Source: Candidatus Komeilibacteria bacterium (GTDB taxonomy: Bacteria > Patescibacteriota > Patescibacteriia > UBA1558 > 2-01-FULL-52-15). Taken from it: 64,000 nt of DNA. Under the pieces are notes generated by a model. The model was given only the letters and a program-made list of their open reading frames with translations. It made no database searches and was not told the origin of the DNA. The stretch covers positions 9,608 to 73,607 of the forward strand of contig JAZDLR010000013.1 in the NCBI GenBank assembly GCA_043801745.1. The letters run 5' to 3'. The translations under genes and the position numbers were made by a program. This document shows positions 92 to 52,393 of this stretch, piece after piece. The stretch's first letter is position 1; the number at the start of each line of letters is the position of its first letter.

Positions 92-556
92 TCAGGAGGC
101 GTGCTGCAGCAGATAGGCCGCGGCGGCCTGGATCTGGGCCCAGTCCTTGGCGACCTCGACGGGGTCCAGGTCGTCGAAGAGATTCATCCTGGTCATCCGC
201 CCCAACGGACCCTTGTCGGTGCGGAACGACTGTCCCGCGCCCCAGGTGCCGTTGGCCGCGCGGTGCAGAATACCCCTCTCCGTTTCCGTGACATCGCCAT
301 TGACGATGTCACGGAGCAGAGGCAGGTAGTCCGGCTCAACCCCGCGGGTCAGAGCCATGATGCTGCACCCGGTCAGGACCGCCTGCGGCCCGGCCAGGTT
401 CTGGGCCACCATCTCGGGCTTGTCCTCGCCGAAGGGTTCGGTCCACTCGGGGTGGCCGCAGCCCTCATTGTAGGCGGCGGCACAGGCGTTCGCGATTTCA
501 ATCAGCCGCACCTTGTTCTGCATCAGGTCTCGGATCCACTGATTGCTGGGGATCAT
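92..556 (-). CDS. hypothetical protein (GC-rich island 1)
   Basis: 154-aa ORF in a ~60% GC segment flanked by AT-rich DNA. SD GGAGGT sits 7 nt upstream on the minus strand. No recognisable domain. Confidence 0.5.
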   Translation of the reverse strand: MIPSNQWIRDLMQNKVRLIEIANACAAAYNEGCGHPEWTEPFGEDKPEMVAQNLAGPQAVLTGCSIMALTRGVEPDYLPLLRDIVNGDVTETERGILHRAANGTWGAGQSFRTDKGPLGRMTRMNLFDDLDPVEVAKDWAQIQAAAAYLLQHAS

Positions 557-5670: not shown

Positions 5671-6165
5671 TTAGAAGTTCTCTACCACTACACGTCTTGA
5701 CTCCCAGCGAACGTTGCCGCTGAATTCGACCGTAGCTCCATTGGTGTCTTCGAAAATGAAGCACCAACCATGGTCCGCCTCATTCAGGCCATTGAAAGAC
5801 AGGGCCTTGAGAGTGTAGCGGTTGTTGACTAGCCCAACCGGGGTCACTCCGAGCGTGATCTGGTAGGCGCCGGATATAGAGTATCCGGTTACCATGGTGA
5901 CGATGGTGATCTGCTGACTGGGAATATTCGGCCAGCAAGTAATGATTCCGCCGAATGGGTCAAGCGGTAGGCCGGCATCTTTGAACGTCTGACTCCTGAT
6001 TTGCACCAGTGCCTGGTCGTCGCTCCCGTTCATGGCCACAGTCTTGGGCTGTTGGCGGTTAATAACAAGTACACCGCCACCTCCCTGAGCCCAGGCAGGA
6101 ACCATGTTCAGACACAGAACCGCGAGAACAAGCAGTACGAGGCCGATGATTTTGGGGGTCTTCAT
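5671..6165 (-). CDS. secreted hypothetical protein (GC-rich island 2)
   Basis: Signal peptide MKTPKIIGLVLLVLAVLCLNMVPAWAQ. SD GGAGGA 6 nt upstream. ~55% GC versus AT-rich flanks. Confidence 0.55.
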   Translation of the reverse strand: MKTPKIIGLVLLVLAVLCLNMVPAWAQGGGGVLVINRQQPKTVAMNGSDDQALVQIRSQTFKDAGLPLDPFGGIITCWPNIPSQQITIVTMVTGYSISGAYQITLGVTPVGLVNNRYTLKALSFNGLNEADHGWCFIFEDTNGATVEFSGNVRWESRRVVVENF

Positions 6166-6337
6166 GAAGCGTCCTCCGTGTTTAGTGATTGGAACACTAT
6201 TGGCACAGTGATTATCGTTATCAGCTGACATTGGGTCAGCTAAGGTTGTAAGAACGTAAGATTCTAGAAAGTATCAATTTTGTGTCATTTTGTCAATCTG
6301 GGCTAATCTTGTGCTTTGGTTTAATCTATAGTTAGCC

Positions 6338-6622
6338 ATGAATTTGTCGCTATTACAGAAATATATACTTAAAGTTTGCTATGGTCAGCTCTCTTTGCCC
6401 AAGGAGTATTTTTTAGCGTTTTATCAGGGTAATAATATTGACGCAGAAACGGCCTTAAAGGATATAGGCAAAAGTATCGATCGTCTGGTTTCGCGGGATT
6501 TATTGAAAGTTTCAGGTGTCAAAACAGCGAAAAAATGGTATACTTCCACTGTGAATTTGACGTATCAGGGAGAAAAAATGGCCAAGAAATTGTTGAGTGA
6601 GCAGCCGAAGTTGTTTAGATAA
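6338..6622 (+). CDS. hypothetical protein
   Basis: 94-aa ORF in host-like composition. Confidence 0.4.
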   Translation: MNLSLLQKYILKVCYGQLSLPKEYFLAFYQGNNIDAETALKDIGKSIDRLVSRDLLKVSGVKTAKKWYTSTVNLTYQGEKMAKKLLSEQPKLFR

Positions 6623-6645
6623 TTAAACCACCCCGCCTGTCGGCA

Positions 6646-6667
6646 CCCCTCCTTGCTAAGGAGGGGA
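6646..6667. repeat. GC-rich palindrome CCCCTCCTT-gcta-AAGGAGGGG (family A variant)
   Basis: 9-bp inverted repeat preceded by ACCACCCCGCC, the same words that open the ~400-nt elements. The 3' arm supplies AGGAGG 13 nt before the GTG at 6679. Confidence 0.45.
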
Positions 6668-6678
6668 ACGCTGATACA

Positions 6679-7311
6679 GTGTCTCGGTGTAACATATTAA
6701 CCACTATGACCAACAAACAATTGATCAAAAAATTGGACGAGTGGGGCGTCGATTATGAGGTGCTGAAACACAAGACTGTGTTTACCGCTCATGATGTGGC
6801 CGCCACTCTGAAAACAAAATTAGACGAAATCGTGAAAACGCTGGTCATTGAAGCGGACAAGCGTTTTTATTTAGTGTCTTTGCCGGCCAGCAAGAATATT
6901 GATTTTAAGCAGTTGAAAAAGGTGATTAAGAAAATGGGCGGCTCGGTCAAGAGCATCGGCATTCCGAGCGAGGAAGTTTTAGTTAAGAAGCTGGGCATCA
7001 AACCCGGCGGAGTTACGGCTTTTTCTAAGTTGCATAAATTACCGCATATAATTGACCGCGATCTGAAGAAAATTAAGAAAGGTGTGTTAAGCGGCGGCAG
7101 TGTGTCAGAAAGTCTGAAAATGAAAATCGCCGACTGGATTAAAGTTGAGGAGCCGAAGGTGGAGATCATTGGTGTTAAGCGTAAAATTAAACCGGTGAAA
7201 AATAATAAAAAAGGGAAAAGCAAAGTTGTAAAGAAAAAATTAAAGATTAAGAAATCAAAACCAAAGGCGAGGAAGGTTGTGCCGAAGAGAACGAATAAGC
7301 GTCGCCGCTAG
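6679..7311 (+). CDS. YbaK/ProX-like aminoacyl-tRNA deacylase domain protein with Lys-rich tail
   Basis: DEWGVDYEVLKHKTVFTAHDVA and LVIEADKRFYLVSLPASKNIDFKQLKK resemble the YbaK/EbsC editing domain. Start could instead be the ATG at 6706. Confidence 0.55.
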   Translation: MSRCNILTTMTNKQLIKKLDEWGVDYEVLKHKTVFTAHDVAATLKTKLDEIVKTLVIEADKRFYLVSLPASKNIDFKQLKKVIKKMGGSVKSIGIPSEEVLVKKLGIKPGGVTAFSKLHKLPHIIDRDLKKIKKGVLSGGSVSESLKMKIADWIKVEEPKVEIIGVKRKIKPVKNNKKGKSKVVKKKLKIKKSKPKARKVVPKRTNKRRR

Positions 7312-7380
7312 TCTTTCCTAATCAGCTAATAAGCCAATAAGCTAATCAGCTACTAAACTACTAATCTACCAAACTATTTT

Positions 7381-8031
7381 ATGGAATCAGAACTACATTC
7401 ATTTATTAAAGATTCTCTGGCTAAAGGCCTGGCCAAAGATAAGATCCGCGAAGTATTACTTCAGGCCAATTGGGAAAAGGATGAAGTTGACGTGGCTTTA
7501 AACCGCTATGCTGACATTAACTTTCCTATTGCCGTGCCCAAGCGTAAGCCCTATTTATCCGCGCGAGAAGCCTTTATGTATCTACTGACCTATGTGACTT
7601 TGTACGTCAGCTCATTTAATTTAGGCGCTTTGATTTATCAGTTTATTAACCGCGCTTTTCCGGATGCGACTATTCCGGTTGGTCAGCTCTATGATGCTGC
7701 GGTTAATCCTTCGGGTATCCGCTTTAATTTAGCCTCGCTGATTATTGCTTTTCCGATTTACCTTTGGCTGACCATTATTCTCAATCGCAGCGCGGCGAAA
7801 AATCCGGAAGCCCGTAGTTCCCGCGTACGCAAGTGGCTGACTTATTTGACGCTATTCGTCACTGTCGGCGTCATGATCGGCGATTTGATCGCCTTGCTCA
7901 ATCGTTTGTTCAATGGCGATATTACTATGCGCTTTGGCTTGAAGTTCCTCACGGTGCTGGTCATTGCTGGAGTAGTCTTTGTTTATTATTTGCGCGATCT
8001 GCGTAAGGAGGAAACTACTAATGCTAAATAA
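7381..8031 (+). CDS. membrane protein
   Basis: Soluble N-terminus followed by 4 predicted TM helices. DUF5671-like in my recollection. Confidence 0.5.
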   Translation: MESELHSFIKDSLAKGLAKDKIREVLLQANWEKDEVDVALNRYADINFPIAVPKRKPYLSAREAFMYLLTYVTLYVSSFNLGALIYQFINRAFPDATIPVGQLYDAAVNPSGIRFNLASLIIAFPIYLWLTIILNRSAAKNPEARSSRVRKWLTYLTLFVTVGVMIGDLIALLNRLFNGDITMRFGLKFLTVLVIAGVVFVYYLRDLRKEETTNAK

Positions 8032-8479
8032 AATTTTATTTTGGGTAGCAATCGCCGTAGTAGCAGCTGCTATTGTCGGCGGATTTATGCTCAGTGGTTC
8101 GCCCCAGCAGGCGCGAAAAACTAATCTGGATGACAGCCGCGTCAGTTCATTATCGCAAATTAACACGGCAATTAATCTTTTTTATGATAATAAAAAAGTG
8201 TTACCCCAATTATTGAGTGAATTGCAGCAGCAGCCGGTTTATTATGTGAGTATGATTACTGATCCGGTTACGGCCGTTCCGTTCGAGTATAAGATTACTG
8301 GTGCTACCACCTATGATTTATGTGCTACGTTTGATCTGGCTTCGGACCAAAGTTCAAATCTGCCCGTTGATCCTTATTACAACGGCTCCACTTTTTGGCA
8401 GCATCCGGCCGGAAATTATTGTTATCATTTAGAAGTTTATAGCGCCAACAAAGATGTAACACCACTGCCAGTTAAATAA
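8021..8479 (+). CDS. membrane-anchored hypothetical protein
   Basis: AGGAGG 10 nt upstream of the ATG at 8021. N-terminal TM MLNKILFWVAIAVVAAAIVGGFML. Confidence 0.5.
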   Translation: MLNKILFWVAIAVVAAAIVGGFMLSGSPQQARKTNLDDSRVSSLSQINTAINLFYDNKKVLPQLLSELQQQPVYYVSMITDPVTAVPFEYKITGATTYDLCATFDLASDQSSNLPVDPYYNGSTFWQHPAGNYCYHLEVYSANKDVTPLPVK

Positions 8480-8483
8480 ATAA

Positions 8484-9209
8484 TTGATGCATAAAGTCAG
8501 TCTGGAACAATTTGAAGGACCACTAGACCTACTCCTGCAGCTCATTGAGCAGCAGGAGTTGGATATTACCACCGTTTCTTTGGCCCATGTGACGGATCAA
8601 TATCTGCAGTATTTGGAGAAATTAGAGCAGATAGTGCCGGAAGAAGTAGCGGATTTTTTGTTAGTGGCCTCCAAATTGATTTACCTCAAGTCTAAATACT
8701 TATTGCCTAATTTAACTATTGCTGATGAGCAGGACGCTACTGATCTGGAGCGGCAATTAAAGATGTATCAGCAGTATTATGAGGCCAGTAAGGTTATTGA
8801 GCAGATGATTGCCAAGCGGAGGTTTACTTTTGTCCGCGAACATCCTCTGAAAGTCAAGTTTGAGCAGGAATTCACACCGCCTCCGGCCCTGAAATTGACT
8901 GATCTGTCTACAGCTATGCGTTCAGTAATTGAGCGCCTGGGCGAGATTAAAATCCTGCCGCGTATTATGATGGCTAGGGCTGTGAGTATCAAGGAGCGGA
9001 TTCAGCATTTCCGCGAGCTGCTGACCAAAAATATCAAGCTCAGCTTTGACCGTTTTCACGATAAAGACAACAAAGTTGATACCATCGTTAGTTTTTTGGC
9101 GCTATTGGAATTAGTTAAACAGCGTTTTGTCACAGTGGAACAAGAAAATTTATTTACGGAAATAACCATTTGTTCTAATCCTTTACAACAACCCAAACTC
9201 AATGAATAA
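8484..9209 (+). CDS. scpA: segregation and condensation protein A
   Basis: FEGPLDLLLQLIEQQELDIT N-terminus typical of ScpA. Followed by scpB. Confidence 0.8.
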   Translation: MMHKVSLEQFEGPLDLLLQLIEQQELDITTVSLAHVTDQYLQYLEKLEQIVPEEVADFLLVASKLIYLKSKYLLPNLTIADEQDATDLERQLKMYQQYYEASKVIEQMIAKRRFTFVREHPLKVKFEQEFTPPPALKLTDLSTAMRSVIERLGEIKILPRIMMARAVSIKERIQHFRELLTKNIKLSFDRFHDKDNKVDTIVSFLALLELVKQRFVTVEQENLFTEITICSNPLQQPKLNE

Positions 9210-9786
9210 GTCATCTTTGGCCAGTTCAATTGAAAGTTTATTGCTGGTTTCCGCTAAGCCCTTGTCTTTTCGGGAATTAGCCCAATTAACCCAGAGTGGG
9301 ACTGACGAAGTGGCTGCTGCTGTGACGCAATTGCAGAGTAAATTTAATGATGCCGTTGGCGGTATCCGTTTGCTAGTAAACGATAAACGGGCGCAGTTAG
9401 CAACTGATGCTGGTCAGACCAAGTTGATCAAGGCTTACTTGCAGTCGGAAATCACCGGAGAATTAACCCGCCCTAGCTTGGAGACCTTAACAATAGTAGC
9501 TTACCGCCAGCCGGTGACGAAGGAGGAATTGGAGCAAATTAGAGGCGTTAATTGCAGTTTGATTTTGCGTAATTTAATGATCCGTGGCTTGGTGGAGCCC
9601 CGGGAAGCCAAAGGAGGCCTGACAACTGATTACAGTGTTACTATGGATTTTTTGCGTTTCTTGGGGATTACAAAAGTTGAAGAGCTGCCTGATTATGAGC
9701 GGCTGCATAGTCATGAAAATATCCAGGCAGTGCTAGACCAGAAACAAGCCGAGGAGAGCGAGGTTAGTCATGATACGGTTAGCTAA
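9202..9786 (+). CDS. scpB: segregation and condensation protein B
   Basis: ScpB-like winged-helix repeats. Overlaps scpA by 8 nt. Confidence 0.8.
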   Translation: MNKSSLASSIESLLLVSAKPLSFRELAQLTQSGTDEVAAAVTQLQSKFNDAVGGIRLLVNDKRAQLATDAGQTKLIKAYLQSEITGELTRPSLETLTIVAYRQPVTKEELEQIRGVNCSLILRNLMIRGLVEPREAKGGLTTDYSVTMDFLRFLGITKVEELPDYERLHSHENIQAVLDQKQAEESEVSHDTVS

Positions 9787-10444
9787 ATTTTTAGCCTTGG
9801 CCGGTATTGCCAGCCGGCGGGAAGCTGAGCAGTTGATTACAGCCGGTAAGGTTTTGGTCAATGGCAAGCCGCACCTGGAGCTGGGCCGTCCGATTGATGA
9901 AAATAGAGATGTCGTTGTCTTTCGTGGCCAACCAGTGAGAGCTGAAGCCAAAGTTTACTATTTAGTGCACAAGCCGATCGGTTATCTATCGGCCAATAAG
10001 GATAGTTACACGGATCTGGTAGTTACTAAGCTGGTTCCTATTCAGCCAAAAGTTTATCCGGTGGGTCGTCTGGATAAAGATTCCAGCGGCTTAATGTTGT
10101 TAACTAATGATGGTGATTTAACTTATCAGCTGACTCATCCTAAGTTTGCCGTTGAAAAAGAATATGAAGTAACCACCGATAAACCGGTTACGGCGGCTTT
10201 GTTGGCGGATTTAAAAAAGGGAGTGAAATTGGCTGAGGGATTGGCGGTTATTGATAACGGTAAAATTATTGGTCCGAAAAAATTCAGTCTGACTTTGCAT
10301 CAGGGCTGGAACCGGCAAATTCGTCGGATGTTAGGTCACTTAGGTATTGGCGTAGTTGGTTTAGTCCGGGTCCGGGAGGGAAATCTGAAATTAGGTAGTT
10401 TGCCTGTGGGCAAGTATAAAAAAATTACCCAGCCGCATTTATGA
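9770..10444 (+). CDS. rluB: pseudouridine synthase, RsuA/RluB family
   Basis: S4 domain (IASRREAEQLITAGKVLVNG) plus the catalytic motif GRLDKDSSGLMLLTNDG. Confidence 0.8.
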   Translation: MIRLAKFLALAGIASRREAEQLITAGKVLVNGKPHLELGRPIDENRDVVVFRGQPVRAEAKVYYLVHKPIGYLSANKDSYTDLVVTKLVPIQPKVYPVGRLDKDSSGLMLLTNDGDLTYQLTHPKFAVEKEYEVTTDKPVTAALLADLKKGVKLAEGLAVIDNGKIIGPKKFSLTLHQGWNRQIRRMLGHLGIGVVGLVRVREGNLKLGSLPVGKYKKITQPHL

Positions 10445-11391
10445 CCAGTTTCGTACAATTTTGCGCGGCCATCATTACTCTGTTAGGCTTATCTCTAAGC
10501 CAAACGCCGCAGCTTTATACTTTAGTCTGGCATGAGCGGGCCGAACCGGTGGGTTCTGTCTGGACTTGGAGTAAACAATCAACAGTTGGAGCTCCGGTGA
10601 AAATTAATAGGGATTCTTTAGGTGTGGCGGTCGCAGCGCCGACAGCGATTATTATCGACGGTCAGAGCGGTGCTACGCTCTGGGAGAAAAATCCGGCCGA
10701 TGTCCGCGCCATTGGCAGTATTACTAAACTCATGTCAGTGTTAGTTTTCTTAGATCATAATCCTGGCTGGAATACAGTTGTCACCATTACAGCCGCAGAT
10801 CAAGCGAACGACGGCAGAAGTAACTTTGTGGTTGGCGAACAAATTAAAGTCCGGGATTTATTGGCTGCCAGTCTGATCCCGTCTGATAATGACGCGACGC
10901 AGACTCTGGCGCGGATTAGCGGTCTGTCATCAGAGGACTTTGTGAAAGCCATGAACGATAAAGCCCGCAGTTTAGGCATGACGCAGACGGTTTTCACCGA
11001 ACCGACCGGCCTGTCAGCTGATAATGTCTCCACTGCCCGCGAAGTAATAGTTTTTGCTCGGGAAGCTTTTGCCCGCCCGGAAATTGCCGTTTTTGTCAGC
11101 GATAAGGAATATCAATTTACTTCCGTAAGTGGTCAGCAACATCGATTAAAATCCACCAATAAACTTTTCGGCTCTATTATTGGTATTAAACAAGCCAAGA
11201 CTGGTTTTATTGATCAGGCTGGTCATTGTATGGTGGCCAAAGTTGAGGATAAAGGGCGAATTATTTTTACCGCTGTGCTGGGAGCGCCAACTGATGCCGA
11301 CCGTTTTCAAGATACTAAAATGTTAAGCTATTGGGCTTTTCATAATTGGCGTTGGCCCCAAGAGGCTAATCCGCCGCAGTTAGTGCTATAA
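10441..11391 (+). CDS. D-alanyl-D-alanine carboxypeptidase (PBP5/DacA family)
   Basis: SITK, SDN and KTG active-site motifs with an N-terminal signal peptide. Confidence 0.75.
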   Translation: MTSFVQFCAAIITLLGLSLSQTPQLYTLVWHERAEPVGSVWTWSKQSTVGAPVKINRDSLGVAVAAPTAIIIDGQSGATLWEKNPADVRAIGSITKLMSVLVFLDHNPGWNTVVTITAADQANDGRSNFVVGEQIKVRDLLAASLIPSDNDATQTLARISGLSSEDFVKAMNDKARSLGMTQTVFTEPTGLSADNVSTAREVIVFAREAFARPEIAVFVSDKEYQFTSVSGQQHRLKSTNKLFGSIIGIKQAKTGFIDQAGHCMVAKVEDKGRIIFTAVLGAPTDADRFQDTKMLSYWAFHNWRWPQEANPPQLVL

Positions 11392-11396
11392 TATCA

Positions 11397-12161
11397 GTGA
11401 TGAAACCTCTGATTATCGGCAATTGGAAAATGAACTTAAGCCTGCAGGAGGCCGTGTCTTTGGCGCGTTCCGTGCGCCAACGTTTAGTTTTGAATCGGTC
11501 AGGCAATAAAGCGGAAGTAGTTCTGTGTCCCAGCTTTGAGGCCCTGGTTTCAGTAAAGAAGGTGTTGGGTCGCGGTCAGATTGAGTTGGGTGGTCAGGAC
11601 GTTTTTTGGCAAGCTTACGGACCGTTTACCGGTGAAGTGACGGCGCAGAATTTAGCCGACTTAGGTTGTCGCTATGTGATTGTCGGACATTCGGAACGAA
11701 GGCAGCATTTGGCGGAAACTAATGAGATGATTAACCGTAAGGTCAAGGCCGTGCTAGAAGCTGGTATGATTCCAATTCTCTGCGTGGGCGAAACTATTGA
11801 AGAACGCCGCGAGCAGCAGCAAGATTTAACAGTGATGACGCAAATTATTGAAGGCTTAGCCGGTATTCAATTAACCGCCGACCAATCATTAGTCATCGCT
11901 TACGAACCAGTCTGGGTTATTGGTTCTGGTCAAGCCATCAATCCGCCCGAAGCTGGTCGTATGAGTTGGGTGGCACGGCAGGCTTTAATTGATATTTTTC
12001 CTCTGACTACGGTGCAGCAGCAAACCAGGATTATTTATGGCGGCAGCGTTGATGACGTCAATATTAAAAGTTTTCATGATTTAGAATTGATCAGCGGTTT
12101 TTTAGTCGGCGGATCTAGTCTAGATAGTCATAAATTTATTGATTTAATTAAAGCACTCTAA
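11397..12161 (+). CDS. tpiA: triosephosphate isomerase
   Basis: IGNWKMN, VIVGHSERR and AYEPVWVIGSG motifs. Confidence 0.9.
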   Translation: MMKPLIIGNWKMNLSLQEAVSLARSVRQRLVLNRSGNKAEVVLCPSFEALVSVKKVLGRGQIELGGQDVFWQAYGPFTGEVTAQNLADLGCRYVIVGHSERRQHLAETNEMINRKVKAVLEAGMIPILCVGETIEERREQQQDLTVMTQIIEGLAGIQLTADQSLVIAYEPVWVIGSGQAINPPEAGRMSWVARQALIDIFPLTTVQQQTRIIYGGSVDDVNIKSFHDLELISGFLVGGSSLDSHKFIDLIKAL

Positions 12162-13054
12162 TGATTGAAGATTTATTGTTGACAGTCCGCAAAGCGCAAA
12201 AAAAGCATTATGCCATCCCGGCTTTCAATGTTTCTGATTTGGAAATGGTGCAGGCCATAATCCGTGCGGCCGTGAAAATGAAGTCACCGGTCATTGTTCA
12301 GACTAGTGAATCAGCCTTAAAATACGCCGGTGCTAAAACTCTGGCTATGATTATTAGTTCAGTGGCCGCGGATATTGGTCAAGCTGTGCCGGTGGCAATT
12401 CATTTGGATCATGGCAAACATCAGGCGGTCATTAATCAGTGTTTGCGTAATGGTTTTAATTCTGTGCACCGTGATGCTTCGGAATTGCCTTTAGCTAAAA
12501 ATATCGCAGCCACGAGAAAAACAGTTTTGGCCGCCAGGAAATTTAAGGCCCGCGTCCAGGGAGAATTAGGAGCCATTTTTGGCCTGGAAGGTTTAACTAA
12601 ATTGAAGCAGGGCTTTGATCAGCGGCAGATGATGACAGATCCGCGGCAAGTCAAGGAATTTGTCGGCAGGACTGGAATTGATACTCTGGCTATTTCAGTC
12701 GGTACTATTCACGGATCGTTTAAAGGCGTGGAACATATAGATGTTAAGCTGATCAAAGCTATTGCTCGAGAAGTAACGACTCCTTTAGTTTTGCACGGTG
12801 GTTCTGGCAATGATCCGCGGCAAATTAAAGCTGCTATTAAAGCTGGCGTCTGCATTATTAATGTGGACACGGATTTGCGTTTAGCCTTGGTTAGCGGCAT
12901 GCGCCGTGCCTTGAAAAAACCCAGTAAAGCTGGTAAGGTTGACCCTCGCGCAATTTTGTTAGAATCATACGCGCCCATGCAGGCGGAAGCCGAGCGGCTG
13001 ATGAAATTGTTTGGCAGCGCGGGTCGAGCTCAGCTCGATGCGGGTCGAGCTTAA
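12161..13054 (+). CDS. fba: fructose-bisphosphate aldolase class II
   Basis: Class II aldolase architecture (AIPAFNV, HLDHG, LVLHGGSG). Confidence 0.85.
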   Translation: MIEDLLLTVRKAQKKHYAIPAFNVSDLEMVQAIIRAAVKMKSPVIVQTSESALKYAGAKTLAMIISSVAADIGQAVPVAIHLDHGKHQAVINQCLRNGFNSVHRDASELPLAKNIAATRKTVLAARKFKARVQGELGAIFGLEGLTKLKQGFDQRQMMTDPRQVKEFVGRTGIDTLAISVGTIHGSFKGVEHIDVKLIKAIAREVTTPLVLHGGSGNDPRQIKAAIKAGVCIINVDTDLRLALVSGMRRALKKPSKAGKVDPRAILLESYAPMQAEAERLMKLFGSAGRAQLDAGRA

Positions 13055-13055
13055 T

Positions 13056-13940
13056 ATGATTTGGAACTATTTATTTATCGCTCTGATAATCGTTTCGGCC
13101 GGTTATTTACTGTCCCTTTTTTGGCGTCAGCGTAAGATGCTGGCCACTATTAATGTGGAGCGCGTCCCCGGCGTCAAGGATCAGCAAGTTAAAAGTCGTT
13201 TGTTAGAAGCTAAGTTGAAGCGGACCATTGGCGAACACTGGGGTAATGCACGCCGTTTTATCGGTTGGCATCCACGGAAATTATCTGACAGTATAAAATT
13301 CCTGCAGCAGCGCTTACAACAGTTAGAACGCGAGTACCGCCGGATTATTCATAAAGATCTGTCGTCCGAAGTGAAGAAGAGTAAAGCGATTGAAGATTTA
13401 TTGATTGGTGCCCGCACTTATTTGGATCAAGGTGAATATGCTAAAGCGGAAGAGGTTTTGATTGACGCCTTGTCACTCAATGATCATAACGTGGAAGCTT
13501 ACTTTATTTTGGCGCGGGTTTATCAAGGCAAGAAAGAATTAGATCATGCCCGTGAAACTCTGGAATATCTTTTGCGTCTGACTCATAATGAAGATCCTCA
13601 AGTTTTTGAGCAAATGGCCGCTTTATCTCTGGAGCGTGGCAATTTGAAGGAAGCAGAGGAGGAATATTTGCGTTCCATTTCTTTGGATGAAAATAATTAT
13701 CTTTATTATTTTGAGCTGGCCGGTATTTACCGTGATATGGAAGAATTAGTTCAGGCTTTGGAAATAGCCAAGAAGGCTTTGGTATTGGCGCCTAATAATC
13801 CCAAGATTTTAGATTTTCTAATTGAGCTGGCCATTGCGCAACAGGATAAAATTGAAGCTAAACAGTATCTGGAACGGTTAATGGAAGTTAATCCGGATAA
13901 TAATAAGATTGAAGATTTCCGGCAGAGGATTGAGGGTTAG
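13056..13940 (+). CDS. TPR-repeat membrane-anchored protein
   Basis: N-terminal TM then several TPR-like repeats. ATG directly after the fba stop. Confidence 0.6.
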   Translation: MIWNYLFIALIIVSAGYLLSLFWRQRKMLATINVERVPGVKDQQVKSRLLEAKLKRTIGEHWGNARRFIGWHPRKLSDSIKFLQQRLQQLEREYRRIIHKDLSSEVKKSKAIEDLLIGARTYLDQGEYAKAEEVLIDALSLNDHNVEAYFILARVYQGKKELDHARETLEYLLRLTHNEDPQVFEQMAALSLERGNLKEAEEEYLRSISLDENNYLYYFELAGIYRDMEELVQALEIAKKALVLAPNNPKILDFLIELAIAQQDKIEAKQYLERLMEVNPDNNKIEDFRQRIEG

Positions 13941-14249: not shown

Positions 14250-14310
14250 TTGCAGTTCTTTTACATCATCTCCAATGTGCTGACAGTGCTTCATCTGACT
14301 GGAGGAAAAT

Positions 14311-14487
14311 ATGAAACGAAAGGTGCTCAAACAGACCGGATTGTCCGTTGACGAAACGCGAAGGGCGCTTAAAAGTGAAGATCCTGTTAAGATCGGATCT
14401 GGGCTGAAAGACCCAGTTTCCATTTTGATGCTAATTAAGCAGGTGGCATCCAGAAGGAGGAGTAAGACAAAACAGCACACAAACTGA
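14311..14487 (+). CDS. 58-aa basic hypothetical protein downstream of the SAM riboswitch
   Basis: Strong SD GGAGGA 5 nt before the ATG. Product MKRKVLKQTGLSVDETRRALKSEDPVKIGSGLKDPVSILMLIKQVASRRRSKTKQHTN. Absent from the ORF track because it is under 60 aa. Confidence 0.4.
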   Translation: MKRKVLKQTGLSVDETRRALKSEDPVKIGSGLKDPVSILMLIKQVASRRRSKTKQHTN

Positions 14488-14530
14488 AGGCGAATTACAT
14501 TTACGTTTAGTATCCCGCCTTTAGTTATCG

Positions 14531-14567
14531 AGCGGCATGTCCATCATGGGTGTGCCGCTTTTCTATT
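14531..14567 (+). terminator. intrinsic terminator after the small ORF
   Basis: AGCGGCA...TGCCGCT stem followed by TTTCTATT. Confidence 0.4.
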
Positions 14568-14599
14568 AAAAAAAACAGCCGATGAGGTTGTTTTTTTAA

Positions 14600-14686
14600 T
14601 GGTGGGCCGGGTAGGGTTCGAACCTACGAAGGCGCAAGGCCAGCAGATTTACAGTCTGCCCCGTTTGACCACTTCGGTACCGACCC
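14600..14686 (-). tRNA. tRNA-Tyr(GTA)
   Basis: Cloverleaf with anticodon loop CTGTAAA, long variable arm, GGTTCGAACC T-arm and encoded CCA. Confidence 0.85.
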
Positions 14687-14802
14687 ATAAGCCAAAGGCT
14701 TATTATTTTTGATTGTAAAAGATTTTTGTCTCTTATTGTGGGCCCTTGGCCCATGGAGCCGAGAATCCCGCAAAACTATTTCGTCAACTCTTATTTTAAT
14801 TT

Positions 14803-14878
14803 TGGAGCCATCCGTCGGAATCGAACCGACGACCTACGGTTTACAAAACCGTTGCTCTACCAGCTGAGCTAGGATGGC
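14803..14878 (-). tRNA. tRNA-Thr(TGT)
   Basis: GCCATCC acceptor, anticodon loop TTTGTAA, T-arm GGTTCGATTCC, encoded CCA. Confidence 0.85.
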
Positions 14879-14918
14879 GGACTTTTAATTGGTGATTAAT
14901 GAACCTTCGTCAATGCGG

Positions 14919-15024
14919 GACGACCTACGGTTTATCCCGCCACCTTTATTAAATTTAAATGAAGGCGGGACCCCGCCAAAGGCGGTGGCAAAACCGTTGC
15001 TCTACCAGCTGAGCTATCTCGGCC
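14919..15024 (-). pseudogene. tRNA-Thr(TGT)-derived pseudo-tRNA with a 53-nt insertion in the anticodon loop and no T-arm
   Basis: 28 nt (TAGCTCAGCTGGTAGAGCAACGGTTTTG) and 16 nt (TAAACCGTAGGTCGTC) are identical to the adjacent tRNA-Thr. They are split by CCACCGCCTTTGGCGGGGTCCCGCC...GGTGGCGGGA. The 3' part lacks a T-stem and acceptor strand. Confidence 0.5.
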
Positions 15025-15031
15025 TATTCGC

Positions 15032-15105
15032 TGGCAGGGGTGGAGGGAATCGAACCCCCGACATCGGTTTTGGAGACCCATGTTATTCCACTTAACTACA
15101 CCCCC
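15032..15105 (-). tRNA. tRNA-Trp(CCA)
   Basis: GGTCTCCAAAACC anticodon arm as in the E. coli tRNA-Trp I recall. T-arm GGTTCGATTCC, CCCCTG-CCA end. Confidence 0.85.
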
Positions 15106-15125
15106 ACATATTTTTTTGCTACTGA

Positions 15126-15154
15126 TTTATATATACTTTTGGGTATTTTGTAAA
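15126..15154 (-). promoter_or_regulatory. candidate promoter of the tRNA cluster
   Basis: Minus strand reads TTTACA, 17-nt spacer, TATAAA, about 20 nt before tRNA-Trp. Confidence 0.35.
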
Positions 15155-15254
15155 GGGCTACATTATTATACCTTATTGGTAAGCGTTTCTGATAGTCCTG
15201 GCGGCCAGCTCGACGTAACGACTAAGTTCTGACAGCGCGCTGTTAGCTTTTAGT

Positions 15255-15312
15255 TAAAAAATCCCCCGCGTGAGAGCACCAGGCCAAAACCTGATACTGC
15301 TTCACGCGGGGG
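15255..15312 (-). terminator. intrinsic terminator of the island 3 gene
   Basis: 11-bp stem CCCCCGCGTGA/TCACGCGGGGG followed by ATTTTTT on the minus strand. Confidence 0.5.
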
Positions 15313-15326
15313 AAAGGCGCGGCCGA

Positions 15327-15890
15327 CTACTTTACCTCGGCCTGCTCTTCAGGGTTCGCATAGACCGCCCAGTGGCAGGTCAGGCGCCTGAACTCGGACC
15401 AGGCCATGTGCTTCTCCAGCATGCCATCGTCAGTGACGGCGAGGATGGGGAAGCGACGGGCACCGTCCTTCAGCCAGTAGTCGTCTGGGAAACCCACTCC
15501 TCTCCTGGCACTCTTGATTGAGCTCGGGGTCATGGGGTCGTCCCAGGATCCGTCGTGGGGCAAGATGTCCTTGAGGCTCTCGAGTGTCGGAAATCTAGCA
15601 TGGAACGGTCCCATCCACCAGCCCGAAGCCGGCTGTCCGTACGGGAGGAGCGCTTGCTTCATCGTATTCAGGTTAGGCCGGATAACGCCGTGCAATATCA
15701 CTAGCTTGAAATTTCCCACGACATTGAAGGGAGGTCCCGTACCCCCCGAGTAAACCCACCCCCGAGGATCATCTCCGCAGGCGCGGACCAACTCCATGGG
15801 GTCGAATGGGGTTGCGAGCGTGAGCTGAAACACCTTGCTCACGCTGACCTGGTCGGTCTGGTCTTCGATGGTCACAATAGGTTCAGTCAT
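15327..15890 (-). CDS. hypothetical protein (GC-rich island 3)
   Basis: 187-aa ORF at ~60% GC. SD GGAGGA 6 nt upstream in the context CACCAAACCACGGAGGATACTATG. No recognisable domain. Confidence 0.55.
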   Translation of the reverse strand: MTEPIVTIEDQTDQVSVSKVFQLTLATPFDPMELVRACGDDPRGWVYSGGTGPPFNVVGNFKLVILHGVIRPNLNTMKQALLPYGQPASGWWMGPFHARFPTLESLKDILPHDGSWDDPMTPSSIKSARRGVGFPDDYWLKDGARRFPILAVTDDGMLEKHMAWSEFRRLTCHWAVYANPEEQAEVK

Positions 15891-16086
15891 AGTATCCTCC
15901 GTGGTTTGGTGTTCTTGTTCTCCTTCGCGACATCCGCGTGGTAAGCGCCATAGCTTCTCACCAGATTGTCCGTACAGGCGAAATTGTACTTACAGACTCT
16001 TAAAGGAACCACACACACCCTAACATTATTATCAGTAACGTCAAGGCGTAGGGATCCTTCCCAGGAGGTCGTATGATAATAAAAAG

Positions 16087-16104
16087 ACAAGCGCAGCGCT
16101 TGTT
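16087..16104. terminator. palindromic hairpin ACAAGCGC-ag-GCGCTTGT
   Basis: Perfect 8-bp stem flanked by an A-run and TTTTG. May insulate island 3 from rpmG read-through. Confidence 0.35.
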
Positions 16105-16127
16105 TTGATGGGATTATATATATAAAT

Positions 16128-16153
16128 AAAGAAAGCGCTTTCGCGCTTTCTTT
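16128..16153 (-). terminator. rpmG terminator
   Basis: Perfect 11-bp stem AAAGAAAGCGC/GCGCTTTCTTT with a 4-nt loop, directly after the rpmG stop. Confidence 0.55.
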
Positions 16154-16310
16154 ATACCTTAGTTTCTTTATGTTCAGTATGCTTTTTACAGAACTTGCAG
16201 AACTTGGTCAGTAATAGACGTTCTTTGATCTTTTTCTGATTACGGGTGGTATGGTAGTTCACGTGGTGGCAAACCGAACATTCCAGACCAACTAGATTTT
16301 CTTGAGACAT
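16152..16310 (-). CDS. rpmG: 50S ribosomal protein L33
   Basis: 52-aa product MSQENLVGLECSVCHHVNYHTTRNQKKIKERLLLTKFCKFCKKHTEHKETKV with the C4 zinc ribbon typical of L33. Missing from the ORF track because it is under 60 aa. Confidence 0.8.
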   Translation of the reverse strand: MSQENLVGLECSVCHHVNYHTTRNQKKIKERLLLTKFCKFCKKHTEHKETKV

Positions 16311-16399
16311 AATAATTAATTGAGTTAATTGAACAATTGATTAATTGATTTTTTTAATGATGGCGTGCCAGCCGAAGTCCGCCCAGAGCGGACAAAGGA

Positions 16400-16475
16400 T
16401 GGAGCCGTTGCGCGGGATTGAACCGCGGACCTTCTCCTTACCATGGAGATGCTCTACCAGCTGAGCTACAACGGC
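16400..16475 (-). tRNA. tRNA-Thr(GGT)
   Basis: GCCGTTG acceptor, anticodon loop ATGGTAA, T-arm GGTTCAATCC, encoded CCA. Confidence 0.85.
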
Positions 16476-16702
16476 GGAGATGATGATTGTATATCTATTA
16501 TCTATATTGATGACTGTCTCGTAGATTTTGCCACTGCTCGCCCCGCTGAGCGGGGAGCTACAACGGCGCAAACTGTCATTTTTTGCTTATTTTTACTGTC
16601 CGAGTATAACCAATTGATGGGGTATTGTCAACAAAGACAGTGGTTTAAGTCAGCTTCGGTAAGTGGTATAATTATTATACTTTAAAAGCCTTTCAAATAA
16701 CT

Positions 16703-17293
16703 ATGAAAAAATATATTGCCGAGTTTATCGGTTCACTATTTCTGACCCTGGTGGTCGCCCTGTCTTTAGCTTCTGGATCAGCTGTTCCTATACCGATGGC
16801 AGCCGGTCTGACCTTCGGCTTATTAGTTTATGCTACTGGTCATATTTCTGGAGCGCAGATCAATCCAATTGTAACGATCGGTTTGTGGTTCTGGAAAAAA
16901 ATAAAAGCTAAACAGGCCGGGCTTTATATTATTGCGCAGTTTTTGGGGGCCTGGGGTGCTATGATTATTATTAAATATATGAAAGTGATTCCGGCTACAG
17001 TGGTAGTAGTTAATTCGGTGCCGGTTTTCCTAGCTGAAATGATTGGGTCGATTGTTTTCACTTTTGGTGTCGCGGCAGTAGTTTCCGGCAAAGTACGTGA
17101 GTCTTTAGGTGGTGTTGTTATTGGTGCGGCTTTAATGGTCGGAATCATTCTAGCCGGCGCAGTATCTAACGGTACTTTAAATCCGGCCGTGGCTTATGGT
17201 ATCAGGTCTTTTTCCTGGGTTTACCTTCTGGCTCCTATTGTTGGTTCTTTGATTGGCATGAATTTATTCCGCTGGTTAAATAAGAATTCCTGA
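16703..17293 (+). CDS. MIP-family channel (aquaporin/glycerol facilitator-like)
   Basis: Six TM segments with two NPx motifs (GAQINPIVT and NGTLNPAVA). TG-extended TATAAT promoter upstream. Confidence 0.8.
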   Translation: MKKYIAEFIGSLFLTLVVALSLASGSAVPIPMAAGLTFGLLVYATGHISGAQINPIVTIGLWFWKKIKAKQAGLYIIAQFLGAWGAMIIIKYMKVIPATVVVVNSVPVFLAEMIGSIVFTFGVAAVVSGKVRESLGGVVIGAALMVGIILAGAVSNGTLNPAVAYGIRSFSWVYLLAPIVGSLIGMNLFRWLNKNS

Positions 17294-17294
17294 G

Positions 17295-17699
17295 ATGTCT
17301 GGCTACGAAGAAAAACCGGATAACCGCGGTGGACGTCAAGTAGAGTTTCATATCGGAGTTTCTCCGGATTTTATCAATGCCTGGTCTCACTTGTCTCCGG
17401 TGACAGAATTAATTGACAGTCATCCGGACAATCCAGCTTTAATGCAATTCTCGGAAAAGATTGTGAGACGGGCTCTGAGCCAGGATATTCCCAGCTATGC
17501 CGATTATCTCAGAAAAAAATATGACGCCCAGACAGCAGGGCGTATATTGGAAGAGAGTCGAGCCGATGTAGTAGCTCAATTGGATGAGCTGGCGTCGGAA
17601 TTTAATCGCAATAGAGTTAAGATAGCTGAGGAAAGTGATTGGCCGGCAGTTCATGCGTTATTGGAAAGGGCAGTGCAACTAATTCAACAAGCAAAATAA
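17295..17699 (+). CDS. hypothetical protein
   Basis: 134-aa ORF in host-like composition, translationally coupled to the aquaporin gene. Confidence 0.45.
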   Translation: MSGYEEKPDNRGGRQVEFHIGVSPDFINAWSHLSPVTELIDSHPDNPALMQFSEKIVRRALSQDIPSYADYLRKKYDAQTAGRILEESRADVVAQLDELASEFNRNRVKIAEESDWPAVHALLERAVQLIQQAK

Positions 17700-17700
17700 A

Positions 17701-17922
17701 ATGAAGAAAAAGACTACTAAACGCGATTCTTGGGCCGATGAAATTGCCGCTATTGGCGAGCACCTGAGCAATTTAGGAGCGCATGCCCACGATGTTTTAG
17801 GCGAGGCCCAGCAGCGTTATAAGAAGTTAGATCCGGCGACCAAGAAGAAAGTCAAAGCCGGCATGCTGGCTTTGGGAGCGGTGGCCGCTTTGGCTGTTGT
17901 TAATAAAGTTAGAAAAAAATAA
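17701..17922 (+). CDS. small membrane protein
   Basis: 73 aa with a C-terminal TM (AGMLALGAVAALAVV). Confidence 0.4.
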   Translation: MKKKTTKRDSWADEIAAIGEHLSNLGAHAHDVLGEAQQRYKKLDPATKKKVKAGMLALGAVAALAVVNKVRKK

Positions 17923-17924
17923 CT

Positions 17925-18260
17925 ATGTCCATTTTGATTCAATGGCTGGTTTCAGCCTTGGTAATTATGGCCGGAGCTTATCTGCTCCCGGGAGTTAAAG
18001 TTAGTAGTTTTCTGACGGCTTTGGTAGTGGCAGTAGTTCTGGCTGTGGTTAATGCTGTAATTAAGCCAATTTTTGTGCTACTGACTTTCCCTATCACAAT
18101 TGTTACTTTGGGTTTGTTTCTGTTGGTTATTAATGCTTTGATGATTATGCTGGTCAGCGCTGTTGTGCCTGGATTTAAAGTTAACGGTTTCTGGTGGGCC
18201 GTGGCTTATAGTTTGATCTTGACCGTTTTTAATTATGTGATAGCGAGCTGGCGGGCCTAA
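17925..18260 (+). CDS. 4-TM membrane protein, phage-holin-4-like (DUF360) family
   Basis: Pattern GAYLLPGV...AVVNAVIKPIFVLLTFPITIVTLGLFLLVINA typical of the Phage_holin_4_2/DUF360 family as I recall it. Confidence 0.55.
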   Translation: MSILIQWLVSALVIMAGAYLLPGVKVSSFLTALVVAVVLAVVNAVIKPIFVLLTFPITIVTLGLFLLVINALMIMLVSAVVPGFKVNGFWWAVAYSLILTVFNYVIASWRA

Positions 18261-50755: not shown

Positions 50756-52393
50756 ATGTTCGGATTCATGCTGTTCCTGATCGTTGTGGTTCTGGGCGCC
50801 GTTGTTTATGAGAATATGCGGCAGCCCAATCCTGAGACGCGGGTCTTCCCAGATTCGCGCGAACCCATCACTCAGGCAGTGACCTGGAGTCACTGCCACA
50901 CGGTCCTGGAGACCAGCCTTTACTGGCTGCTGGTGGCCATGATTTGGCCCCTGGTTGCGGGCACCATCTTCGGATGGGTCTCGCTGACCTGGTATAGCAG
51001 CTATGTCGTCCAGCACATCGCAGACGGCGGCATCTGGAACATGTTCAGTTTCGCAGTCACCAGTAACATCTTGGTGCGCTGCATCCTGATCTACTGCATC
51101 GGCTCCATAGCTCTTACGGGCTATCTGGTTGTGAACTGGCCACACGGTGTGGCCCGCTTCCTGGTAGGACGCAAGTGGCGGGTCATGAACTCCGGCTTGC
51201 ACTTTGTGCTGGGCGGCATCGTGATTGGCTACCGTACAGTAGTCGTGGATGAGGCCAAGAAGATCACCCGCCGTGAAAGGCGCTACCTTTTCGGCCGCAT
51301 TGGCCGGAATGTGTTAGTGCTGCGCGATGAACTCCGGGCTAGCGTGGTGCTGACCGAGGGCGGTCAGACAAGCGAGCAGGCGATTAAGACCCTCACTACC
51401 GAACCGTTGCCGACATCGATGTCTGTTAACGGCAACGCTGCTGCCGCAGCTGCCAGCGGTTCCGGTGGTACTACGCTGAAGTTCCCCCACAACTTCTATT
51501 TCGTGAAGTGGTGGCTGTTCACCTACCTTGGAACTTCGCCGGCTACGCTGAGCAAGCATCTGGTGACATCTGTTGATGACCTGTTCCAGGCTGATTGGCG
51601 GCGTTTCGTCGCCATCCTGGACTATGACCAGGCAAGGTTTGTGCAGGGTAACGTTTTCTGCTTCGCTGACCAGAACGATCTGGGCAGGAAGATGGAAGAG
51701 TTCAGAGTTCAGCATATCGGCCCCGTTGAGGCTTGGGCTGCCTATCAGCGGTACCTGGCTAACAGGGACGAGGTTACCGAAGGACCACGGTTTGATATCG
51801 CGGCTTTCGATAACCTCAAGGCCACGCGTAACTACGTGGCCATGGCAAGGATGATCCGCGAGCAGGCTCCGAATTCCTTGGCCTGCCGGGTGCTCAATCA
51901 GTTCGGCGTCATTCTCACCTTCTTCGGTATCGAGAACGGCATTGAAGAGGCGGGAATCGCTGCCGAACGCGAGCAGCTGAAGCAGAACCAGGTCAAGCAG
52001 CAGGCAGATTTCCTGGCCGGCGGTGCGGAAATGCGCCGGGCCATGGGAACTGTGCTGCAGCAGCACGGAATCTCGCTGGCTGTGTGGGAATCGCTGCCGG
52101 TAGGTGATCCGCTGAGGGCCCGTCTCCATAGTGAGATGATGGAAACCTGGCGTTTTACCCAGACCATGGCGACTATCGGGGACAAGGACAAGATCATCCT
52201 TGGTGGCAGCGGACAGTCCGGACTTTCCACAACCATCGCGGCCATGGCCGCAGTTCTGCCCCAGGCAAGTGGTGGAGCAGCGGCTGCGACAACGACATCC
52301 ACGTCCACGCCTCCTGTGACACCTGCTCCGCCGACCAGATCTACTGGCCGCGGCAACAGGCCTCGTCGCAGAGGCAACAGAAGCCGACCGTAA
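50756..52393 (+). CDS. membrane protein of unknown function (GC-rich island 4)
   Basis: 545 aa at ~60% GC. AGGAGG 6 nt upstream in a CCACAGGAGG context. About 5 N-terminal TM helices, then a large soluble domain with Ala/Thr/Pro-rich basic C-terminus. Confidence 0.6.
   Translation: MFGFMLFLIVVVLGAVVYENMRQPNPETRVFPDSREPITQAVTWSHCHTVLETSLYWLLVAMIWPLVAGTIFGWVSLTWYSSYVVQHIADGGIWNMFSFAVTSNILVRCILIYCIGSIALTGYLVVNWPHGVARFLVGRKWRVMNSGLHFVLGGIVIGYRTVVVDEAKKITRRERRYLFGRIGRNVLVLRDELRASVVLTEGGQTSEQAIKTLTTEPLPTSMSVNGNAAAAAASGSGGTTLKFPHNFYFVKWWLFTYLGTSPATLSKHLVTSVDDLFQADWRRFVAILDYDQARFVQGNVFCFADQNDLGRKMEEFRVQHIGPVEAWAAYQRYLANRDEVTEGPRFDIAAFDNLKATRNYVAMARMIREQAPNSLACRVLNQFGVILTFFGIENGIEEAGIAAEREQLKQNQVKQQADFLAGGAEMRRAMGTVLQQHGISLAVWESLPVGDPLRARLHSEMMETWRFTQTMATIGDKDKIILGGSGQSGLSTTIAAMAAVLPQASGGAAAATTTSTSTPPVTPAPPTRSTGRGNRPRRRGNRSRP

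Follow-up and report, generated by a model that had tools for sequence, protein, structure and literature searches.

The region between rpmG, which encodes ribosomal protein L33, and the tRNA-Trp gene was examined in a 64-kb window (the whole stretch of DNA analysed) of a 105.8-kb contig belonging to a Candidatus Komeilibacteria metagenome-assembled genome (MAG). On the minus strand the genes and features occur in the order tRNA-Thr(ggt), rpmG, two hairpins, an open reading frame (ORF) encoding 187 amino acids (aa), hereafter ORF187, a third hairpin, tRNA-Trp, a tRNA-like remnant, tRNA-Thr(tgt) and tRNA-Tyr (Table 1). A preliminary description of the sequence had reported rpmG, tRNA-Trp, a GC-rich block (here 59% GC), the 187-aa ORF and three hairpins, and all of these were confirmed where it had placed them. 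The rpmG product was assigned to the L33 family as it scored 59.5 bits against PF00471 (gathering cut-off 25), and it is 85-92% identical to the L33 proteins of loci L010-L014 and L016 from other genomes. In L010, L012, L014 and L016, tRNA-Thr(ggt) is also the neighbour of rpmG.

The gap between rpmG and tRNA-Trp is 1046 nt in the window and includes a GC-rich block (~15180-16075), with GC values of 0.56-0.65 per 100 nt across 15250-15850 versus 0.445 for the whole window. ORF187 has GC1/GC2/GC3 values of 0.59/0.45/0.74 (host and neighbouring genes, GC3 ~0.44), and its GGAGG Shine-Dalgarno sequence is 5 nt upstream of the ATG. The hairpin beyond its stop codon (15262-15313) has perfect 12-bp outer arms and an imperfect inner extension followed by TTTTTT, and the folding energy of the 110-nt 3' flank is -50 kcal/mol. 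As GC3 exceeds GC1 and GC1 exceeds GC2, and both a Shine-Dalgarno sequence and a terminator are present, ORF187 was taken to be a real gene. Ten terminator-like sites were found in 14300-16800 versus 2.9 +/- 1.9 in shuffled sequences. A TTTACA/TATAAA promoter had been proposed for the tRNA genes, and while the sequence is present upstream of tRNA-Trp, the pair fails a sigma-70 consensus scan, the second hexamer being without the final T.

Table 1. Features of the rpmG/tRNA-Trp region of the window and of family loci in other genomes that carry parts of diversity-generating retroelements (DGRs). VR, variable repeat; TR, template repeat; RT, reverse transcriptase; CPR, Candidate Phyla Radiation.
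Feature	Coordinates	Strand	Basis or remarks
Window: tRNA-Thr(ggt), upstream neighbour of rpmG	16400-16475	-	ARAGORN; Rfam tRNA 66.7 bits
Window: rpmG, ribosomal protein L33, 52 aa	16152-16310	-	Pfam PF00471 Ribosomal_L33, E = 4e-16
Window: terminator-like hairpin	16126-16155	-	13-bp perfect stem, 4-nt loop; overlaps rpmG stop codon
Window: second terminator-like hairpin	16087-16103	-	7-bp stem, 3-nt loop, then T-run CTTTTTATTA
Window: ORF187 5' leader	15891-16075	-	GC 0.49; small CGCG...CGCG hairpin, purine-rich tract AACAAGAACA, Shine-Dalgarno GGAGG 15896-15900
Window: ORF187, 187 aa	15327-15890	-	Divergent member of CPR DGR variable-protein family
Window: ORF187 region equivalent to family VR, residues Y138-V176 YWLKDGARRFPILAVTDDGMLEKHMAWSEFRRLTCHWAV	15363-15479	-	Alignment onto VR/TR pairs of L004, L009, L093 and L102
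Window: GC-rich hairpin CCCCCGCGTGA...TCACGCGGGGG then TTTTTT	15255-15313	-	Intrinsic terminator of ORF187
Window: 10-bp direct repeat TTATACCTTA (TAAGGTATAA on minus strand)	Copy 1 16152-16161; copy 2 15166-15175		
Window: promoter-like TTTACA-17 nt-TATAAA upstream of tRNA-Trp	15126-15154	-	Read from sequence
Window: tRNA-Trp(cca)	15032-15105	-	Usual immediate rpmG neighbour
Window: tRNA-Thr(tgt)	14803-14878	-	
Window: tRNA-Tyr	14600-14686	-	
L009	VR 8521-8658; TR 9019-9156; RVT_1 gene 9528-10550		TR-adenine mismatches 21/21; GC (8001-10550): target 0.62, TR 0.58, RT 0.43, flank 0.46
L004	VR 8527-8650; TR 9008-9131		TR-adenine mismatches 18/18; bAvd gene
L093	VR 6344-6467; TR 6825-6948		TR-adenine mismatches 18/18; no other DGR part found in locus
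L102	VR 6457-6575; TR 6942-7060		TR-adenine mismatches 13/13; RT match (tblastn); GC (6001-8615): target 0.60, TR 0.55, RT 0.42, flank 0.48
L121	VR within 6530-6659; TR 8208-8337, opposite strand		Mismatches not counted; RVT_1 and bAvd genes; GC (6001-8337): target 0.62, RT 0.47, flank 0.54, Avd 0.49
L094	3840-6188		GC: target 0.65, TR 0.56, RT 0.31, flank 0.35-0.36

To compare the spacing of rpmG and tRNA-Trp, 80 rpmG loci were retrieved from representative genomes and 33 of them were scanned for tRNA genes. As the preliminary description had supposed, the two genes are usually close: in 25 of the 33 loci tRNA-Trp is downstream of rpmG, in the same orientation and no more than 1.1 kb away, and in 14 the distance is no more than 100 nt. 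Three close relatives (L010, L011 and L013; L33 90-92% identical) have flanking genes in common with the window. L010 shares the left, rpmG-proximal flank (16578-18241) and the same tRNA order, and L011 and L013 share the right, tRNA-distal flank (12028-13935). The rpmG-to-tRNA-Trp spacer is 98, 70 and 68 nt, respectively, as opposed to 1046 nt in the window, indicating that the compact state is ancestral and that the window has gained ~0.95 kb. Hence, a ~0.95-kb single-gene segment has been inserted between rpmG and tRNA-Trp, in agreement with the insertion first proposed. The finding that was to speak against that proposal, namely the same ORF, with a host-like composition, at the same site in relatives, was looked for and no case was found, ORF187 being absent from this site in every sampled relative.

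Several of the database records for the loci in which L33 is 59-92% identical to that of the window (L010-L014, L016, L031, L034 and L035) are titled 'uncultured Gammaproteobacteria bacterium'. These titles are probably wrong labels on Patescibacteria MAGs, as the closest of them have the synteny of the window.

In other CPR genomes, the same spacer was found to contain genes unrelated to ORF187. An ORF for 144 aa, on the opposite strand, is present in L012 (416-850) and L014 (4207-4641), a 3-kb two-gene insert in L016 (4215-7264), ORFs for 86-112 aa in the more distant L017 (4215-4553) and L022 (4303-4563), and an ORF for 196 aa in L039 (4173-4763), with other ORFs in further distant CPR genomes. 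This variety of cargo shows that the rpmG-to-tRNA-Trp spacer is a site of recurrent gene gain, or an insertion hot spot, in the CPR. In the window, one copy of the 10-bp direct repeat coincides with the final codons of rpmG, stop codon included, and the other is located at the distal GC-to-AT transition. The copies bracket 986 bp, the excision of which would leave a spacer of 60 nt, as in the relatives, and the insertion may possibly have occurred via this repeat. A match of this length was reached by 9 of 2000 shuffles and, within the window, by 7 of 413 pairs of control zones (p ~0.005-0.02). When the island was compared with 36 loci carrying homologues of ORF187 using blastn, no similarity was detected at the DNA level and therefore no recent donor was identified.

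ORF187 had been described as an ORFan, and no match was found in Pfam, PHROGs, NCBIfam or PDB sequences, while a word-seeded protein search returned only the protein itself ('hypothetical protein V1846_02210'). However, an exhaustive phmmer search of 1.84 billion representatives identified 14 relatives (E = 1.5e-6 to 4e-4) aligned over the whole domain, and a profile search expanded the family to at least 84 clusters, all annotated 'hypothetical', so that the term ORFan does not apply. A leave-one-out profile, built without ORF187, scored ORF187 at 62 bits (E = 5e-12 in the 1.84-billion-sequence database), and as the homology spans the whole ~140-aa domain ORF187 was assigned to the family. 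All clusters with a taxon-specific name are from Patescibacteria, Paceibacterota or Uhrbacteria MAGs, the others being named just 'bacterium'. No domain was recognised by Pfam in 10 family members, the family profile found no match among PDB sequences, and a scan of viral contigs found no relative. On profile similarity, ORF187 is a divergent member of an unnamed, CPR-restricted family for which there is no Pfam model, and a local hmmsearch found it to be the sole member in the window.

The proteins of this family are soluble and very small (~140-220 aa), lack signal peptides, transmembrane segments and partner domains, and have the consensus GEVFELTL..DP.EMVR.DGY.P..W...G.....FKLV..GY..NL.EV...L...G.IP.GQWREAFK..YP.PDG.GPIGFAD.SW..P.G...FP.V...G...F.W........WRWLV.V. 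ORF187 shares ~25-34% identity with other members, and its conserved positions include F21, L23, W45, G49, F61, G90, W92, W116 and P148 (1-based, Met included). It differs from the consensus in an insertion of ~23 residues, through which the GF.D.SW motif occurs twice (residues 107-120 and 130-144), in the C-terminal motif, where WRWLV is degraded to CHWAV, and in an extension of 11 residues at the C-terminus. That the internal repeat is a retrohoming scar was left as speculation, as its copies have almost no DNA identity. The flanks of ORF187 also resemble those of other family genes, in which a comparable hairpin is found ~45-55 nt before the ATG and, in L001, the leader likewise includes the 10-mer AACAAGAACA, though this resemblance of the leaders is only inferred. 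The 3' hairpin resembles those 3' of the family genes in L009 (CCCCCGCACGGTC..GACGTGCGGGGG), L094 (CCCGCGTGGTC..GACACGCGGG), L102, L100 and L103.

The genetic context of the family was examined in 34 loci, and a template repeat (TR) and/or a reverse transcriptase (RT) gene was found beside the family gene in 11, though among these L094/L095 and L004/L093 look like duplicate pairs. Matches to an RT adjoining the family gene were found by tblastn in L090, L094, L095, L098, L102, L103 and L106. In at least five distinct loci, a variable repeat (VR) is present at the 3' end of the gene and a TR downstream of it, the VR of the family covering the last ~45 residues (SW..P.G...FP......F.W........WRWLV). 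The templates encode Asn-rich sequences, for example SWTNPNGNANFPCVNTNGKSNFNWTDNDWNDNWRWLV, a design using AAC codons that is a hallmark of DGRs. As the VR/TR pairs differ only at adenines of the template (Table 1) and RT or bAvd genes adjoin them, the family members are DGR target genes, and the family therefore consists of DGR variable proteins in other CPR genomes. The family loci not linked to a DGR are single genes among housekeeping genes, such as the L001 gene, which has map and ruvX on either side and is located downstream of the ribosomal protein/secY/adk cluster, or the L008 gene, between tsaE and a 5'-3' exonuclease gene.

A CPR-restricted, cell-encoded clade of DGRs with targets that have no recognisable domains has been reported (clade 2 in Roux et al. 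2021, PMC8144416), as have unclassified CPR variable-repeat classes, the 'CPR set' UVR1-6 (Wu et al. 2018, PMC5758913). The family found here resembles these DGRs in having Patescibacteria as its host range, in the chromosomal location of the elements among housekeeping genes, some of them interleaved with ribosomal protein genes, and in targets without a recognisable domain, the likeness to UVR1-6 being one of description only. The gene in the window, however, is an isolated target homologue and not a DGR.

The preliminary description had read the GC-richness of the segment as a sign of foreign origin. The enrichment is real, but it is a weak indication of a foreign, high-GC donor because genes of this family are GC-rich beside RT genes with host-like GC, and for this family compositional 'foreignness' is misleading. 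When the genes of one cassette are compared, the target ORF shows a GC content of 0.60-0.66 and a GC3 of 0.70-0.85, whereas that of the co-resident RT gene is 0.31-0.47, which is host-like (Table 1). The GC-rich islet starts ~100 nt before the ATG and stops at the stop codon, and the TR forms a second small islet. The excess over host GC averages +0.17 in DGR-linked copies (n=8) and +0.055 in copies without a nearby RT or TR (n=13; Mann-Whitney p = 0.002). For ORF187 it is +0.145, above all 13 orphans measured and inside the DGR-linked range, so that ORF187 looks compositionally 'young' or DGR-like despite having the most divergent sequence. The pattern may reflect amelioration of orphans after loss of the DGR or a force maintaining the GC content of active targets. 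Erosion of adenines across the whole gene by the RT was rejected as the cause of the high GC, as the depletion of T equals that of A, and at third codon positions the composition is like that of an ordinary high-GC gene. It is conceivable, but doubtful, that the ORF-limited enrichment is maintained by the DGR association itself and not inherited from a GC-rich donor. If so, GC islets that span a whole gene would record in their composition the diversification driven by a retroelement, and the island in the window would mark a target still served in trans or a very recent loss of the DGR.

Four other single-gene GC-rich islets were observed in the window, at 92-556 (-), 5671-6231 (-), 50756-52393 (+) and 60254-61318 (-), with GC3 values of 0.86, 0.61, 0.70 and 0.64, respectively, versus ~0.44 for the host. 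Three gave no Pfam match, the fourth matched the ribose-phosphate pyrophosphokinase N-terminal domain, and none belongs to the DGR-target family (local hmmsearch).

An AlphaFold model was obtained for a typical family member, P0017 (pLDDT 88, core 93-98), and its top Foldseek matches in the PDB were almost all C-type lectin domains, including those of mannose-binding protein C, langerin, CD23, CD94/NKG2A and MGL. The ORF187 model gave weak matches only when compared with BFVD, to DUF1566, DUF6273 and C-type lectin proteins. The predicted structure of P0017 suggests that the family domain is likely C-type-lectin-like, in which case the variable residues would probably form a ligand-binding surface. 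Known DGR variable proteins of this type include Mtd of Bordetella phage BPP-1, TvpA of Treponema denticola, TaqVP and the archaeal AvpA. The family resembles these systems in that VR and TR differ only at adenines, the template is Asn-rich (AAC), an RT and/or Avd adjoins the target, a GC-rich hairpin follows the VR and the predicted fold matches C-type lectins first. Unlike them, it has no detectable similarity to solved DGR variable proteins or to the Pfam CLec, FGE or DUF1566 families, its proteins are very small and have neither a signal peptide nor a transmembrane segment or partner domain, and the window copy has no TR, RT or Avd.

On balance, the segment is probably a single-gene insertion carrying an orphan, divergent homologue of DGR variable proteins that has a leader and a terminator of its own. 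No portion of 15101-16160 recurs anywhere in the 64-kb window, hence there is no TR, and when four family-linked RTs and one bAvd were compared with the window using tblastn nothing was found below E = 0.02. ORF187 is thus an orphan in cis, with the DGR machinery absent from the window. As, in addition, the motif resembling an initiation of mutagenic homing (IMH) sequence is degraded and ORF187 includes the 11-codon extension and the ~23-residue insertion, it is most likely that the gene is 'frozen' and that its product is a binding protein of fixed specificity rather than a hypervariable one. Alternatively, ORF187 could still be a live DGR target, with an RT and TR elsewhere in the genome diversifying its C-terminal region in trans, though this appears rather unlikely. 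Targets remote from, and not adjacent to, the rest of the DGR have been described (Wu et al. 2018, PMC5758913), the GC excess of ORF187 is in the DGR-linked range, the stop codon, like that of the family cassettes, is followed by a GC-rich inverted repeat, and the IMH-like 3' end, TGCCACTGGGCGGTC, matches the conserved family motif TGGCGCTGGCTGGTC at 11 of 15 positions. However, none of the DGR components is found in the window, and the end corresponding to WRWLV and the IMH is degraded to CHWAV, with ORF187 running on for 11 codons past the IMH-like motif TGGCGNTGGCTSGT where DGR-linked members stop after 4-6. Furthermore, part of the VR-equivalent region is deleted, and two copies of the motif at its 5' boundary are present.

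Insertion next to tRNA genes had been described as typical of integrative elements, and the segment could be viewed as the remnant of a tRNA-targeting element or a genomic islet, since it is inside a tRNA cluster, tRNA fragments nearby (14879-15031 and 16555-16568) point to past recombination and a 10-bp direct repeat brackets it. Nevertheless, this origin is very unlikely and the characterisation was not upheld. No integrase or recombinase domain was found within 5 kb on either side, where the ORFs encode a MIP channel, a holin-like membrane protein, a tetratricopeptide repeat protein, a 297-aa product that was not scanned against families, and other unknowns. Relative to tRNA-Trp, the island is located 5', where the promoter would be, and not in the 3' end of the tRNA gene, no att-like repeat of a tRNA 3' end flanks it, and the only bracketing repeat, TTATACCTTA, derives from the stop region of rpmG. 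The cargo is one gene in 0.95 kb, none of 22 loci carrying homologues has a tRNA gene within 1 kb of the family gene, and viral contigs gave no match. The segment does resemble small genomic islets at tRNA clusters in its atypical composition, its location and its absence from close relatives, as well as in the different cargo found in the same spacer in other lineages. Unlike them, it has a single gene located 5' of the tRNA gene, with neither an integrase nor a tRNA-derived att repeat. No transposase was found at the island when an insertion sequence or a miniature inverted-repeat transposable element was considered. An 11-nt inverted repeat, ATTTATATATA (15125-15135/16117-16127), is AT-rich and probably due to chance, and no attC core motifs (RYYYAAC/GTTRRRY) were found at the island by eye.

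Alternatively, nothing may have been inserted, with ORF187 ancestral at the site and deleted in the relatives, and the range of the rpmG-to-tRNA-Trp spacer across the CPR, from 8 to >3000 nt, makes losses conceivable. This is very improbable, however, as the spacers of three relatives are compact (68-98 nt), other genomes have unrelated cargo, some of it on the opposite strand, no other sampled genome has ORF187 at the site, and its composition is far from that of the host. An assembly artefact, in which a GC-rich fragment was wrongly joined into the contig, was also considered, since the sequence comes from a MAG and its composition shifts abruptly, within ~100 nt, at either edge of the island. 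Such an artefact is highly improbable, given that conserved synteny resumes directly outside the island on both flanks, that leader, Shine-Dalgarno sequence, ORF and terminator form a coherent unit, and that GC islets of the same kind occur with this family in many independent assemblies.

Some observations weigh against the insertion of a frozen, orphan DGR-target homologue as the explanation. The Foldseek matches of P0017 are non-significant (best E = 0.07, probability 0.66), and the ORF187 model (pLDDT 75) gave no usable Foldseek match. ORF187 is the most divergent member of the family, with no close relative among ~15 billion proteins, and its GC excess of +0.145 fits a recent arrival or a continuing association with a DGR better than long-term orphanhood. 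The inspected DNA is 64 kb of the 105.8-kb contig, and a DGR elsewhere in the MAG could act in trans on 15363-15479. Finally, the 10-bp repeat and the boundaries of the insertion are only suggestive.

On this reading, the ~0.95 kb inserted into the short rpmG-to-tRNA-Trp spacer is a self-contained expression unit for one gene. Transcription of rpmG would end at the two terminator hairpins, a leader of ~185 nt with a strong Shine-Dalgarno sequence would precede ORF187, and the strong GC-rich hairpin would terminate it. With terminators on both sides, ORF187 would be insulated from rpmG and from the tRNA operon, and tRNA-Trp and the later tRNA genes would then require a promoter of their own. 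In other genomes, an error-prone RT rewrites the VR of the homologous gene from the Asn-rich TR. It is also conceivable, though doubtful, that the unit of leader, ORF and hairpin moves on its own via short direct repeats.

Traces of rearrangement were observed elsewhere in the tRNA cluster. A remnant resembling tRNA-Thr(tgt) (14879-15031, minus strand) separates that gene from tRNA-Trp and has a 5' half that includes 28 nt identical to 14844-14871, then a structured insert of ~55 nt inside the anticodon and 16 nt identical to 14828-14843. It has no T-arm or acceptor 3' strand, and the corresponding spacer in L010 is just 48 nt. An intron-containing tRNA was rejected as an explanation, as ARAGORN -i calls none. 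The 5' end of tRNA-Thr(ggt), GAGCTACAACGGCG (16463-16476), recurs 92 nt upstream at 16555-16568, beside a GC hairpin, GCCCCGCTGAGCGGGG, and L014 has an extra partial copy of tRNA-Trp (L014:4716-4771). The cluster seems prone to partial duplications, and with such scars present illegitimate recombination at the site is plausible. At 1.6 kb from the island, a gene on the plus strand (17925-18260) encodes a 111-aa protein with four transmembrane segments that matches Pfam Phage_holin_4_2 (E = 1.6e-34). As it is conserved in the flank of L010, this gene is outside the insertion.

What appeared to be an ORFan island can thus be reinterpreted as an isolated homologue of binding proteins that retroelements diversify, carried by an ultra-small bacterium that probably depends on a host. 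The analysis also defines the limits of a DGR-target family for which Pfam has no model and whose members are currently annotated as 'hypothetical'. The two main leads that arise are the GC contrast between target and RT across the family, which offers a testable lead on the evolution of DGR cassettes, and the recurrent gain of genes in the rpmG-to-tRNA-Trp spacer.

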